In this document: piece after piece, positions 10,518 to 13,420 of the stretch
Position numbering within the stretch: the first letter of the stretch is position 1
How the letters are laid out: the number at the start of each line of letters is the position of its first letter
Virus record (IMG/VR): IMGVR_UViG_2913177423_000002
Length of the DNA stretch: 13,420 nucleotides
Source of the DNA: a virus
Lineage: Duplodnaviria > Heunggongvirae > Uroviricota > Caudoviricetes
Direction: 5' to 3' (one strand)
Notes under the pieces: generated by a model
What the model was told of the DNA's origin: nothing
The model's database searches: none
The model's input: only the letters and a program-made list of their open reading frames with translations
Position numbers and translations under genes: made by a program

Positions 10518-11168
10518 ATGAATACACAACTGATGGGTGAGCGTATTCGCGCTCGCAGAAAAGAACTCAAGATTAGGCAGGCTGCCCTTGGCAAGATGGT
10601 TGGCGTGTCTAATGTTGCTATTTCCCAATGGGAGCGTTCTGAAACTGAGCCCAATGGCGAAAACCTATTGGCCTTAGCCAAGGCTTTGCAGTGCTCCCCT
10701 GATTACTTGTTGAAAGGAGAAGATAGTCTTTCAAACATTGCCTATCACAGCAGGCATGATCCAAGAGGTTCGTATCCTCTAATTAGTTGGGTAAGCGCAG
10801 GATGTTGGATGGAAGCTGTAGAGCCATATCATAAGCGTGCAATAGATAACTGGTACGATACAACCGTAGATTGTTCAGAAGATTCGTTTTGGCTGGACGT
10901 AAAGGGTGATTCGATGACGGCTCCAGCCGGTCTTAGCATCCCGGAAGGGATGATAATACTAGTCGATCCTGAAGTAGAACCTCGTAATGGGAAGCTGGTA
11001 GTGGCAAAGCTCGAAGGAGAAAACGAGGCAACTTTCAAGAAGTTAGTTATTGATGCTGGCAGAAGGTTTCTAAAACCACTTAACCCACAATATCCGATGA
11101 TTGAGATCAACGGGAACTGCAAAATCATCGGTGTAGTTGTCGATGCAAAAATAGCAAACCTTCCATAA
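10518..11168 (+). CDS. c2: Prophage repressor, P22 C2 type (HTH plus S24 LexA-like autocleavage domain)
   Basis: 216 aa; N-terminal helix-turn-helix (QAALGKMVGVSNVAISQWERSE), Ala-Gly cleavage site and GDSM serine motif with downstream lysine. Near-identical to P22 C2 as I recall it. Confidence 0.95.
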   Translation: MNTQLMGERIRARRKELKIRQAALGKMVGVSNVAISQWERSETEPNGENLLALAKALQCSPDYLLKGEDSLSNIAYHSRHDPRGSYPLISWVSAGCWMEAVEPYHKRAIDNWYDTTVDCSEDSFWLDVKGDSMTAPAGLSIPEGMIILVDPEVEPRNGKLVVAKLEGENEATFKKLVIDAGRRFLKPLNPQYPMIEINGNCKIIGVVVDAKIANLP

Positions 11169-11231: not shown

Positions 11232-11285
11232 ATTTAAGTTTTCTTCAAAAATACCCTTGACCACCAATTAAAGAAATCTTAAATT
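11232..11285 (+). promoter_or_regulatory. OL operators and PL promoter
   Basis: Operator-consensus sites at 11232-11249 (ATTTAAGTTTTCTTCAAA) and 11267-11284 (ATTAAAGAAATCTTAAAT); -35 TTGACC (11257-11262), 17 bp spacer, -10 TAAATT (11280-11285) overlapping the second operator. Confidence 0.6.
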
Positions 11286-11486: not shown

Positions 11487-11792
11487 ATGACAGTAGTCAT
11501 TACATATCTGGCTGACGATAACGCCAGAAATCGCCGCAGAGCACGCAGACAGGCTCAACGTGAACAGGCAATGAAAGAACAGAGACTGGCGCGAAAGATT
11601 GCGCTAAAACTCTCTGGTTGCGTCAGAGCAGACAAAGCAGCATCACTTGGCAGCCTTCTCTGCAAGAAAGTAGATGAAGTCGAGAAAAAAAATAGGAGGG
11701 TTTACTACAAGGATTTAAACCCATTAGGAAACAAGATACATGCAGTTCAAAGAATAAGATTGTATAGTAAACCACCGTACGGTGCTTATTGA
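11487..11792 (+). CDS. N: N-like transcription antiterminator with arginine-rich motif
   Basis: 101 aa; N-terminal ARM NARNRRRARRQAQREQ resembles lambda N QTRRRERRAEKQAQ; first gene after PL and nutL; GGAGG RBS. Confidence 0.75.
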   Translation: MTVVITYLADDNARNRRRARRQAQREQAMKEQRLARKIALKLSGCVRADKAASLGSLLCKKVDEVEKKNRRVYYKDLNPLGNKIHAVQRIRLYSKPPYGAY

Positions 11793-11794
11793 GT

Positions 11795-12133
11795 ATGCTT
11801 ATGGTGAAAAAGACTATCTATGTTAACCCTAACTGCGGACAAAACAGGAAAGTATTTGATAGAGGTCTTACACCTCAAGACAGAAGGAGAATAACGAGAT
11901 GGGAAAAGAGAATGGCATATGCATTAGAAAACGGTGTAACACCTGGATTTAATGCTATAGATGACGGTCCGGAATATAAGATTAATGAAGACCCAATGGA
12001 CAAAGTTGACAAAGCATTAGCAACACCATTTCCTCGAGATGTAGAAAAAATTGCAGATGAAAAATATGAGGATGTAATGCACAGAGTTGTTAACCACGCT
12101 CACCAACGAAATCCAAATAAAAAATGGTCATAG
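11795..12133 (+). CDS. Hypothetical early-left protein (about 112 aa)
   Basis: Track ORF 11789-12133 (TTG); ATG at 11795 is more likely, immediately after the N-like stop. No family recognised. Confidence 0.5.
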   Translation: MLMVKKTIYVNPNCGQNRKVFDRGLTPQDRRRITRWEKRMAYALENGVTPGFNAIDDGPEYKINEDPMDKVDKALATPFPRDVEKIADEKYEDVMHRVVNHAHQRNPNKKWS

Positions 12134-12156
12134 CCCACTTCGGTGGGTTTATTATT
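12134..12156 (+). terminator. Terminator-like hairpin with UUCG tetraloop (tL1-like)
   Basis: cccac-TTCG-gtggg (12134-12147) followed by TTTATTATT. Confidence 0.5.
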
Positions 12157-12266
12157 GTCCGAACTAACCGAATTTATTACAGCAAGCCACGCAGTGAAAT
12201 GGGTGTAACTTGTGTTGGTCGCCAGAAAATGAAATTAGGCAGCAAACCACTTATTTAAGGTGAGAT

Positions 12267-12353
12267 ATGGAAGAAGAATTTGAAGAGTTCGAAGAGCATC
12301 CGCAGGATGTGATGGAGCAATACCAGGACTATCCGTATGACTACGACTATTGA
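12267..12353 (+). CDS. Very acidic 28 aa peptide (Glu/Asp/Tyr-rich)
   Basis: ATG at 12267 preceded by AAGGTGAG; MEEEFEEFEEHPQDVMEQYQDYPYDYDY. Below the ORF-track cut-off; overlaps the next ORF start by 17 nt. Confidence 0.35.
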   Translation: MEEEFEEFEEHPQDVMEQYQDYPYDYDY

Positions 12354-12537
12354 TAAAAATCAATGGTGTGGACAATTCAAACGATGCAATGGATGCAAGC
12401 TGCAATCGGAATGCATGGTTAAGCCTGAAGAAATGTTTCCTGTAATGGAAGATGGGAAATATGTCGATAAATGGGCAATACGAACGACGGCAATGATTGC
12501 CAGAGAACTTGGTAAACAGAATAACAATGCTGCCTGA
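12337..12537 (+). CDS. Small Cys-containing hypothetical protein (66 aa)
   Basis: Track ORF; CGQFKRCNGCKLQSEC cluster near the N-terminus. No family recognised. Confidence 0.45.
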   Translation: MTTTIDKNQWCGQFKRCNGCKLQSECMVKPEEMFPVMEDGKYVDKWAIRTTAMIARELGKQNNNAA

Positions 12538-12673
12538 TGGTGGCCTTTATTTTTGGCATAAACAACAGAATAAACACAGCACTGTGTATTCATTCCAACG
12601 AGTGAATACACGGAGCAATGTCGCTCGTAACTAAACAGGAGCCGACTTGTTCTGATTATTGGAAATCTTCTTT

Positions 12674-12699
12674 GCCCTCCAGTGTGAGGGCGATTTTTT
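12674..12699 (+). terminator. Rho-independent terminator
   Basis: Stem gccctc/gagggc (12674-12691), loop CAGTGT, then TTTTTT (12694-12699). Confidence 0.6.
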
Positions 12700-12719
12700 A
12701 TCTATGAGGATATGAATAG

Positions 12720-13088
12720 ATGTCAAACATCAAAAAATACATCATTGATTACGACTGGAAAGCATCAATAGAAATTGAAATCGACCATGACGTAATGACA
12801 GAGGAAAAACTTCACCAGATTAATAATTTCTGGTCAGACTCTGAATACCGACTCAATAAACACGGCGCTGTATTAAATGCTGTATTAATCATGCTGGCGC
12901 AACATGCTCTGCTTATAGCAATTTCGAAAGACTTAAATGCATATGGTGTTGTTTGTGAGTTCGACTGGGATGATGGAAATGGTCAGGAAGGATGGCCTCC
13001 AATGGATGGTAGTGAAGGAATAAGAATTACCGATATCGATACATCAGGAATATTTGATTCAGATGATATGACTATCAAAGCCGCCTGA
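12720..13088 (+). CDS. Acidic hypothetical protein (122 aa)
   Basis: Track ORF with GAGGA RBS; C-terminal third rich in Asp/Glu/Gly (WDDGNGQEGWPPMDGSEGIRITDIDTSGIFDSDDM). No family recognised. Confidence 0.6.
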   Translation: MSNIKKYIIDYDWKASIEIEIDHDVMTEEKLHQINNFWSDSEYRLNKHGAVLNAVLIMLAQHALLIAISKDLNAYGVVCEFDWDDGNGQEGWPPMDGSEGIRITDIDTSGIFDSDDMTIKAA

Positions 13089-13163
13089 GCGCGGCTTTAC
13101 CGCATACCAATAATGCTTCACCAGAGGCATTTTCGTTATGCAATCAAATATAAGGAGTTACCC

Positions 13164-13298
13164 ATGATGCACTTTCAGCTCGCGGGTAGCGGCGTCATGT
13201 CCGCTTTCTACCCGCACGAATCTGAATTATCACGCCGAGTTAAACAATTAATCAGAGCAGCAAAGAAACAACTGGAGGCGTTATGCGCAATGAAATAG
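13164..13298 (+). CDS. cIII: CIII-like protein (44 aa, putative FtsH inhibitor)
   Basis: ATGATG at 13164 with AAGGAG RBS (track ORF begins earlier at 13113). QLAGSGV...HESELSRRVKQLIRAAKKQLEAL parallels lambda CIII AIAGWPVAGCPSESLLERITRKLRDGWKRLIDIL (recalled): same AG motif and amphipathic helix. Confidence 0.65.
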   Translation: MMHFQLAGSGVMSAFYPHESELSRRVKQLIRAAKKQLEALCAMK

Positions 13299-13420
13299 CC
13301 ATCAATCACCAGATGCTTCGTGCAGCACAAAACAAAGCAGTAATAGCCCGATTTATTGGTGATTCAAAAATGTGGCTTGAAGCAAATAAAGCGATGAAAT
13401 GTAGTGGCATAGTAAATTTG
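13283..13420 (+). CDS. kil: Kil-like protein, N-terminal part (ORF continues past the window end)
   Basis: ATG at 13283 with GGAGG RBS; MRNEIAINHQMLRAAQNKAVIARFIGDSKMWLEANKAMK; the segment IARFIGDSKMWLEA resembles lambda Kil IATFIGDEKMFREA (recalled). Confidence 0.55.
   Translation, partial: MRNEIAINHQMLRAAQNKAVIARFIGDSKMWLEANKAMKCSGIVNL

Follow-up and report, generated by a model that had tools for sequence, protein, structure and literature searches.

The question raised by this locus is whether a very short and very acidic open reading frame that runs into the start of ral is a gene with a protein product of its own or a stretch that serves its neighbor in some other way. The original prediction described a 28-codon acidic ORF with its own ribosome-binding site in the window (the whole 13,420-nt stretch of DNA analyzed here), and it offered several readings of it, from a DNA-mimic-like peptide to a non-translated leader. 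Direct reading of 12257-12353 bears out the ORF and its ribosome-binding site, which are the following two features:

12257-12264, plus strand: Shine-Dalgarno sequence AAGGTGAG of orf28, seen by direct reading and ending 2 nt 5' of the ATG
12267-12353, plus strand: orf28, a 28-codon gene for the acidic peptide MEEEFEEFEEHPQDVMEQYQDYPYDYDY, with its ATG at 12267 and its TGA at 12351-12353

The enrichment in Glu, Asp and Tyr is real as well, and the fraction, which had been put at about half, needs correcting upward to 17 of 28 residues (61%; 8 Glu, 4 Asp and 5 Tyr). Twelve of the residues are acidic and none is Lys or Arg. The length of 28 codons alone is not significant, given that 38 ORFs of 20 aa or more reach into 11500-13420; orf28 is raised above chance by being conserved in other phages. 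The feature itself is already known, because the instance in the window is the catalogued orf28 of lambda; the original prediction identified neither it nor its neighbor ral. The two products are 100% identical (J02459 complement 34271..34357), the lambda one being entered as lambdap47, a "hypothetical protein", in NC_001416 and as AAA96576.1 in GenBank. The peptide also matches PHROG 16060, a 28-position family, over its entire length (hmmscan E-value of 7.1e-19, 69 bits, residues 1-28 on profile positions 1-28). No temperate phage has been studied more than lambda, and yet its orf28 has so far been catalogued only as a hypothetical ORF. PGAP leaves it out of the RefSeq E. coli prophage record that we examined, it is also missing from the curated phage 21 and P22 records examined, and our full-text literature searches found no functional study of it. 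As far as these searches go, three points described below appear to be new, namely the evidence that the protein is under selection, how widely the family occurs and its ties to both Ral and Lar.

The window holds the immunity and early-left region of a lambdoid phage and is oriented along the pL transcript. Read in that direction, the genes and boundaries around orf28 are:

10518-11168: cI-like repressor, first in the order
11487-11792: N-like antiterminator, after the cI-like repressor
11789-12133: Nun-like ORF, after the N-like antiterminator
12132-12149, plus strand: terminator-like hairpin with a T-rich tail, the 5' boundary of the orf28-ral module
12337-12537, plus strand: ral, restriction-alleviation gene of 66 aa (PF11058 at 9e-48; phrog_1055 at 3.9e-49)
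12529-12544, plus strand: terminator-like hairpin with a T run, directly after ral, the 3' boundary of the module
12720-13088: ea10/DUF2528, beyond ral and the terminator-like site at 12529-12544

The gene at 12337-12537 carries the annotation ral in lambda, 21 and P22, among other phages. In the window, as in lambda, orf28 sits in the early leftward operon after N and overlaps the start of ral. The two phages share the same peptide, the same position between the N region and ral and the same 17-nt overlap with ral, but they differ in the upstream neighbor, which is the Nun-like ORF with its terminator-like hairpin in the window and sieB in lambda. Similarity to lambda starts only about 25 nt 5' of the orf28 ATG. 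A 621-nt segment around orf28 matches 2253 of 5426 complete E. coli genomes.

Selection on the orf28 reading frame

To judge the reading frame we relied on ral loci that had been gathered through similarity of the Ral protein or of the DNA, so that the orf28 peptide played no part in their choice. Among 80 viral contigs ranked by similarity to a divergent Ral, 78 loci could be assessed and 74 of these carry an intact orf28-like ORF that overlaps the ral start. The remaining four have a disrupted orf28, two through nonsense mutations and two through a 46-nt deletion, which means that Ral can persist without it. The Ral- and DNA-selected set comprises 50 distinct coding sequences and 36 distinct full-length peptides, counts that overstate the number of independent events because many of the sequences are closely related. 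Further loci (L117-L136 and L217-L279) were found with DNA patterns that fix several residues, and for that reason they were left out of the selection statistics.

Over codons 2-22, the portion that lies 5' of the ral AUG, the variable sites of the 50 distinct sequences fall on codon positions 1, 2 and 3 in the numbers 5, 5 and 20 (chi-square p of 5.5e-4), and the aggregated pN/pS of the 50 coding sequences is 0.175. Insertions and deletions are in frame throughout, being 6 or 9 nt long; the Kluyvera copy lacks 9 nt and 6 nt. E7, F8, H11, P12, D14, Y19 and Y22 are unchanged despite varying third positions and M16 is invariant too, while Asp and Glu interchange freely at the acidic positions. 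The core motif of the family can be written as [DE]-F-x-[ED]-H-P-x-D-x-M-x-x-Y-Q-D-Y-P. Of 36 distinct upstream segments of 20 nt, nearly all have a Shine-Dalgarno-like element at a distance of 1-7 nt from the start, and it is retained even where the surrounding upstream sequence is unrelated. Its duplex energies range from -4.8 to -11.4 kcal/mol and are weaker (-2.7) in the P22/ST64T type. On this comparative evidence the orf28 frame is selected for its protein product, from which we infer that it is translated. The suggestion of a non-translated leader is therefore not supported, since orf28 is a real, conserved coding sequence under purifying selection.

One may ask if the conservation could instead come from something other than a gene, either an RNA or DNA element, with the palindrome as the site of a regulator, or the antisense ORF at 12235-12405 on the minus strand. 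The 161-nt region does fold better than its shuffles (z of -2.1), and two antisense frames are open across orf28 in nearly all sequences. Against this, the three-base periodicity of the variation fits the orf28 frame only. The third positions of orf28 are the second positions of the antisense ORF, which puts the periodicity in the wrong phase for that candidate and led us to reject it, and the sole antisense frame that shares the third positions of orf28 has stop codons in 51 of 51 sequences. The inverted repeat, for its part, is conserved no further than the ral codons require. We consider an origin of the conservation outside the orf28 protein to be extremely improbable.

The junction with ral and the interrupted repeat

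The 3' end of orf28 overlaps the next ORF, as had been noted, and three features of this junction need to be considered together:

12325-12328, plus strand: ral Shine-Dalgarno AGGA, 8 nt before the ral ATG and within orf28 codons 20-21
12341-12371, plus strand: predicted RNA hairpin, with an inner stem of 12346-12354 paired to 12359-12367, an AAAA loop and an outer stem of 12341-12344 paired to 12368-12371
12349-12364, no strand assigned: inverted repeat ATTGAT/ATCAAT with 6-bp arms and an AAAA spacer, the 16-mer ATTGATAAAAATCAAT, which forms the apex of the hairpin

With the ral ATG at 12337 and the orf28 stop at 12351-12353, the two genes have 17 nt in common. A ribosome-binding site is annotated at the same ral position in phage 21 and in lambda imm434. 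The orf28 stop comes 14 nt after the ral AUG, and across the ral loci examined the two genes share 17, 11 or 8 nt. The upstream stop thus comes just after the downstream start and the ral Shine-Dalgarno lies inside orf28, an arrangement through which translation of orf28 could couple to that of ral, as the original prediction had envisaged. In loci of this type, ribosomes finishing orf28 would melt the hairpin over ral codons 2-12, and those terminating on orf28, 14 nt past the ral AUG, could reinitiate and so boost ral translation.

The repeat fared less well. It had been called a perfect 16 bp palindrome, but the reverse complement of ATTGATAAAAATCAAT is ATTGATTTTTATCAAT and the AAAA spacer is not symmetric; a perfect 16-bp palindrome is found nowhere in the window. 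Repeats with 6-bp arms and a 4-nt spacer occur 9 times in the window, where shuffles have 3.5 +/- 2.0, and with spacers of 0-6 nt there are 43; the interrupted repeat at 12349-12364 belongs to a class that is common by chance. It lies wholly within ral codons 5-10 and is not conserved beyond what these codons dictate: a synonymous change in ral, AAT to AAC, breaks it and is not compensated. When its conservation was checked, the apical pairs turned out not to form in 6, 17 and 8 of the 42 distinct sequences compared. A protein-binding DNA site, which was one of the functions proposed for it, is not supported, because these apical pairs are the least conserved ones and because divergent ral loci that carry the peptide lack a comparable hairpin (-0.4 to -6.4 kcal/mol).

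As RNA, the predicted hairpin has 9-13 bp and contains the orf28 stop codon together with ral codons 2-12 (ral +5 to +35), leaving the Shine-Dalgarno and the AUG of ral free. Its calculated dG is -8.5 kcal/mol for 24 nt (z of -8.0) and -12.5 for 33 nt, which ranks it 201 of 13387 33-nt windows in this sequence and makes it notable without being exceptional. Across 42 distinct gap-free homologues 87.6% of the pair cells are paired, and both sides have changed in 4 of 14 pairs, for example U-A to U-G to C-G at columns 23/36. Covariation is scored at 0.099, compared to 0.085 in shuffles, and 2 of the 500 shuffles reach the observed score. There is hardly any variation in the six central pairs, since two overlapping reading frames and the Trp codon fix them. 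The conservation of the hairpin is moderate and fits translational coupling at most, and within the Escherichia/Salmonella clade the RNA may play a modest part in coupling or stability.

These observations bear on the main rival of a trans-acting peptide, which is a purely cis-acting leader ORF. Here the translation of orf28 would matter only for the control of ral and the peptide would have no function in trans. Such a leader could work by termination and reinitiation with melting of the hairpin, or by the pausing or destabilizing of ribosomes through the acidic N-terminus MEEEFEEFEEHP. The positions of the orf28 stop and of the ral Shine-Dalgarno would suit a leader, as would a hairpin that spans ral +5 to +35. 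Two loci with the 46-nt deletion (L169 and L177) are without the acidic half and yet keep a Shine-Dalgarno-like GAGGA, an ATG and 13 codons through the ral start. For the second route, PMC11282234 reports that acidic residues in the first 30 codons pause ribosomes and that mgtA is regulated in this way via MgtL. What a leader would not account for is the invariance of the non-acidic residues F8, H11, P12, M16, Y19 and Y22 (pN/pS of 0.18) or the divergent ral loci that retain the peptide and are missing the hairpin. A further difficulty is that the peptide gene also occurs 3' of lar or alone, followed by a terminator, with nothing to regulate. We think it unlikely, on balance, that control of ral is all that orf28 does.

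Spread of the family and its genomic contexts

Peptides of this family are 24-28 residues long and are conserved in temperate phages and prophage-like contigs of Escherichia, Salmonella, Shigella, Providencia and Kluyvera, as well as in unassigned contigs. Wherever a locus was read in detail, and in every annotated phage examined, the gene follows N at a short distance within the early leftward operon. Further homologues were recovered with degenerate DNA patterns derived from the conserved motif. The hits were true family members in 20 of 20 cases in a first scan, in 63 of 63 in a second scan (IMG/VR viral contigs) and in 17 of 20 in a metagenome collection. A scan of a genome collection returned mostly lambda DNA contaminating unrelated assemblies, and its informative hits were those in Providencia and Kluyvera only. 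A DNA pattern that barred V and D from position 15 had zero matches.

Three arrangements were seen. In the first, which accounts for 45 of the 63 viral contigs, the stop codon of the peptide gene lies 17 nt (sometimes 11 or 8) inside ral, and this extends to very divergent Ral proteins (L129 and L227). In the second, found in nine viral contigs, ral is absent and the peptide gene lies immediately 3' of a gene of the Lar family of restriction-alleviation proteins (PF14354 at 30.4 bits with a cutoff of 28.6; phrog_599 at 5.9e-11). The GTG start of the peptide and its Shine-Dalgarno GGAGGTGA overlap the lar stop codon in these loci. A second, distant Lar clade also adjoins the peptide motif (L255, L271 and L278), and there the motif is the C-terminus of a 56-aa Cys/His-rich ORF, as it is in protein P0042. 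The lar-peptide module was essentially absent when E. coli genomes and GenBank phages were searched for it. In the third arrangement, represented by seven viral and three metagenomic contigs, the peptide gene is alone, with neither ral nor lar, and in those contigs whose downstream sequence was read its stop is directly followed by a terminator-like hairpin.

The ral-lacking loci give additional insight. The hairpin directly 3' of the peptide gene in them consists of GGCTGCCTGATGGCGGCC and a T run and is closely similar to the one after ral. Four of these loci (L123, L125, L136 and L264) look like clean losses of ral with the peptide kept, because the hairpin that follows the peptide is the one normally found after ral. 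In phage ECP1, ral is internally deleted and orf28 is intact, and another annotated anti-restriction gene, phrog_14587, follows. As a terminator directly follows the peptide gene in both stand-alone and lar-type loci, a regulated downstream gene is not always present. That the gene occurs with ral, with lar or alone makes a pure leader ORF and non-coding roles unlikely.

At the protein level, an exhaustive profile search of 1.84 billion representative proteins returned only 27 entries, all of at most 70 aa and all with the motif at the C-terminus. None of these 27 is a multi-domain fusion, save the 56-aa Cys/His-rich variant. Given so few database entries, the family is a narrow, phage-specific micro-protein that is usually missed by gene callers. 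A search with a 41-aa stop-to-stop extension of orf28 gave only 34 tiny or artefactual entries. We also looked at a possible frameshift fusion of orf28 to Ral and rejected it, as the fused proteins (P0013, P0014 and P0022) are isolated truncated or aberrant entries that are most simply sequencing or assembly errors.

The contexts could suggest that the peptide is a dedicated partner of Ral and Lar, that is, a cofactor, chaperone or inhibitor of these small zinc-finger-like proteins that would be made in fixed proportion to them through the overlapping genes. The peptide gene has stop/start overlaps with the genes of both, and the 56-aa variant fuses the motif to a Cys/His-rich N-terminal segment in two divergent members (L255 and P0042). 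In addition, one study reported that ral cloned alone gave little or no relief of EcoKI restriction (PMC9410887), but the weak effect of Ral alone in that work has other possible explanations. The stand-alone copies, which have no ral or lar within 1.5 kb, and the retention of orf28 in ECP1 after the loss of ral are harder to reconcile with a dedicated partner, and we regard such a role as quite doubtful.

Possible roles and comparison with known systems

The explanation we favor, and hold to be rather probable as a whole, is that orf28 is a genuine gene for an acidic peptide with an early role in trans tied to anti-restriction, and that its translation is in addition coupled to ral. The early trans-acting role linked to anti-restriction is no more than our best inference. 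The peptide would be one of the earliest products of the pL transcript under N antitermination, and its action in trans would probably consist in binding a partner protein through a disordered segment of acidic and aromatic residues. The role would probably be linked to the evasion of type I restriction. The adjacency to the Ral and Lar genes may, however, reflect only a shared early slot after N and not a shared function. The sole functional datum that we found on orf28 is a plaque result, in which CRISPRi knock-down had no effect on plaques when the host lacked type I restriction (PMC10695390).

A more specific version of this, which we offer as a tentative possibility, is that these peptides are unrecognized anti-restriction factors of 24-28 aa that work with, or are required by, Ral and Lar. 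If true, orf28 would bind, for instance, subunits of the type I enzyme or the zinc-finger-like modules of Ral and Lar, and it would be a missing component in the switching of EcoKI to de novo methylation by Ral. We did not find a structure of Ral in the PDB.

The acidity of the peptide invites the alternative of a miniature DNA mimic, which would block the DNA-binding site of a type I enzyme or of another defence protein in the manner of Ocr and ArdA. With 12 of 28 residues acidic, none basic, and a probable early expression beside anti-restriction genes, this is a natural thought. Searches of Pfam, NCBIfam and the PDB at permissive thresholds gave no match to orf28, so homology to a known mimic family was not found. 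The known mimics are folded, whereas the AlphaFold2 model of the 41-aa extended orf28 (from 16 sequences) is disordered, with no regular structure predicted, a mean pLDDT of 62.5 and a pTM of 0.17, values to be read with the caveat that short peptides and shallow alignments model poorly. The fixed positions are mainly aromatic or hydrophobic plus His-Pro, and the acidic ones interchange. The conservation pattern looks, judging by the alignment, more like that of a protein-binding motif than of a mimic of the phosphate backbone, and we rate a DNA mimic as improbable. A mimic of the SSB tail was also considered and rejected, since the C-terminal residues vary (YDY, YDF, YDH, YED, YEN and YDN).

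The gene matters for several reasons. orf28 encodes a protein under selection and is found in most prophages that carry ral, and overlapping frames tie it to two non-homologous families of restriction-alleviation proteins. It therefore offers a cheap and concrete experiment on the means by which Ral and Lar relieve type I restriction. It is also an example of how gene callers overlook proteins of fewer than 30 residues. If the peptide were a mere coupling leader, the result would be an ordinary one.

Looking at known systems can help to place orf28, with the limit that Ocr/ArdA, Stp and MgtL are offered as analogies and not as functional classes to which it is assigned. In PMC11282234, the MgtL-type, EttA-dependent leaders are recognized by a cluster of Asp and Glu with an occasional Pro within the first 30 codons. 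orf28 has 8 acidic residues in its first 14 (MEEEFEEFEEHPQD), an acidic cluster of this kind, and it shares with these leaders the acidic run, the intervening proline and the position as a short ORF before a regulated gene. It is unlike them in its invariant non-acidic residues and in having copies with nothing downstream to regulate. The coupled, overlapping gene pairs of phage operons are a second likeness, as in these too the Shine-Dalgarno and AUG of the downstream gene lie inside the upstream ORF, which stops a few codons past that start. Coupling alone, though, leaves the protein-level conservation of orf28 and the lar-first order unexplained.

The anti-restriction proteins Ocr (T7 gp0.3) and ArdA are folded dimers of more than 100 residues. 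They counter type I restriction (PMC9410887). Strong acidity and, probably, early phage or plasmid expression are what orf28 has in common with them, and it differs in having 28 residues, no detectable homology and no predicted fold. In size the closer case is Stp of T4, a 26-residue peptide that inactivates a type I restriction enzyme. Stp is basic, and it is not known to be related to orf28 in sequence or to be gene-coupled to Ral or Lar. It nevertheless provides a precedent for a phage peptide of fewer than 30 residues that acts on type I restriction-modification.

Disrupted and variant forms of the orf28 region

Two of the compared ral loci (L169 and L177, about 1120-1180) carry a disrupted copy of orf28, the 28-codon acidic-peptide gene, in which a 46-nt deletion bounded by two GAGG repeats has removed the SD and codons 1-14. 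The junction recreates an SD-like GAGGA followed by an ATG, giving a 13-codon remnant, MNKYQDYPYDYDY, whose reading frame still runs across the ral start. In phage ECP1 (L115, 628-1220) it is orf28 that is intact, and annotated, while an internal deletion has reduced ral to an 18-codon remnant; another annotated anti-restriction gene lies downstream (phrog_14587 match, 2.2e-48).

A longer form of the peptide adjoins a gene of the Lar restriction-alleviation family:

L255 13075-13245, reverse-complement strand: 56-aa orf28-motif variant (also in L271, L278 and the database protein P0042)

Its gene is 3' of the Lar-like gene with an ATGA overlap, and the product has a Cys/His-rich segment (H-x-C-x2-C ... 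H-x-C), with the orf28 motif forming the C-terminus. The Cys/His pattern is common to two divergent members.

Lambda DNA and labels in the collections

Lambda-identical ral/orf28 DNA was found in the genome collection on short or low-coverage contigs (L005-L020, L022, L024, L025 and L027) that are assigned to organisms with no relation to its hosts, among them Nocardioides, Paenibacillus, Bradyrhizobium, Shewanella and Vibrio, and this is most simply explained as contamination of the assemblies with lambda DNA. Separately, the product labels of the lambda record in the phage collection (L001, J02459) are off by one gene, so that the orf28 CDS is named 'ral' and a cIII-sized CDS is named 'kil'.

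Other sites and genes of the window

The following sites lie elsewhere in the window:

6337, 11278 and 11773: perfect 12-bp palindromes
12529-12544: terminator-like site after ral
12672-12693: second terminator-like site

Between the two terminator-like sites, at ~12581-12614, is a predicted RNA hairpin with a dG of -18.8 kcal/mol, which no other 33-nt hairpin in the window matches in stability. The palindrome at 11278 may be an operator, since it falls within the promoter-like site (11257-11285) that separates the repressor gene from the N-like one. Profile comparison of the 11487-12133 region matched an N-like antiterminator gene (phrog_271, 1.7e-29) and, directly after it and with overlapping ends, a gene for a Nun-like transcription-termination factor (phrog_5632, 2.6e-66). 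A gene of the N type and one of the Nun type thus share a single pL operon in this phage.
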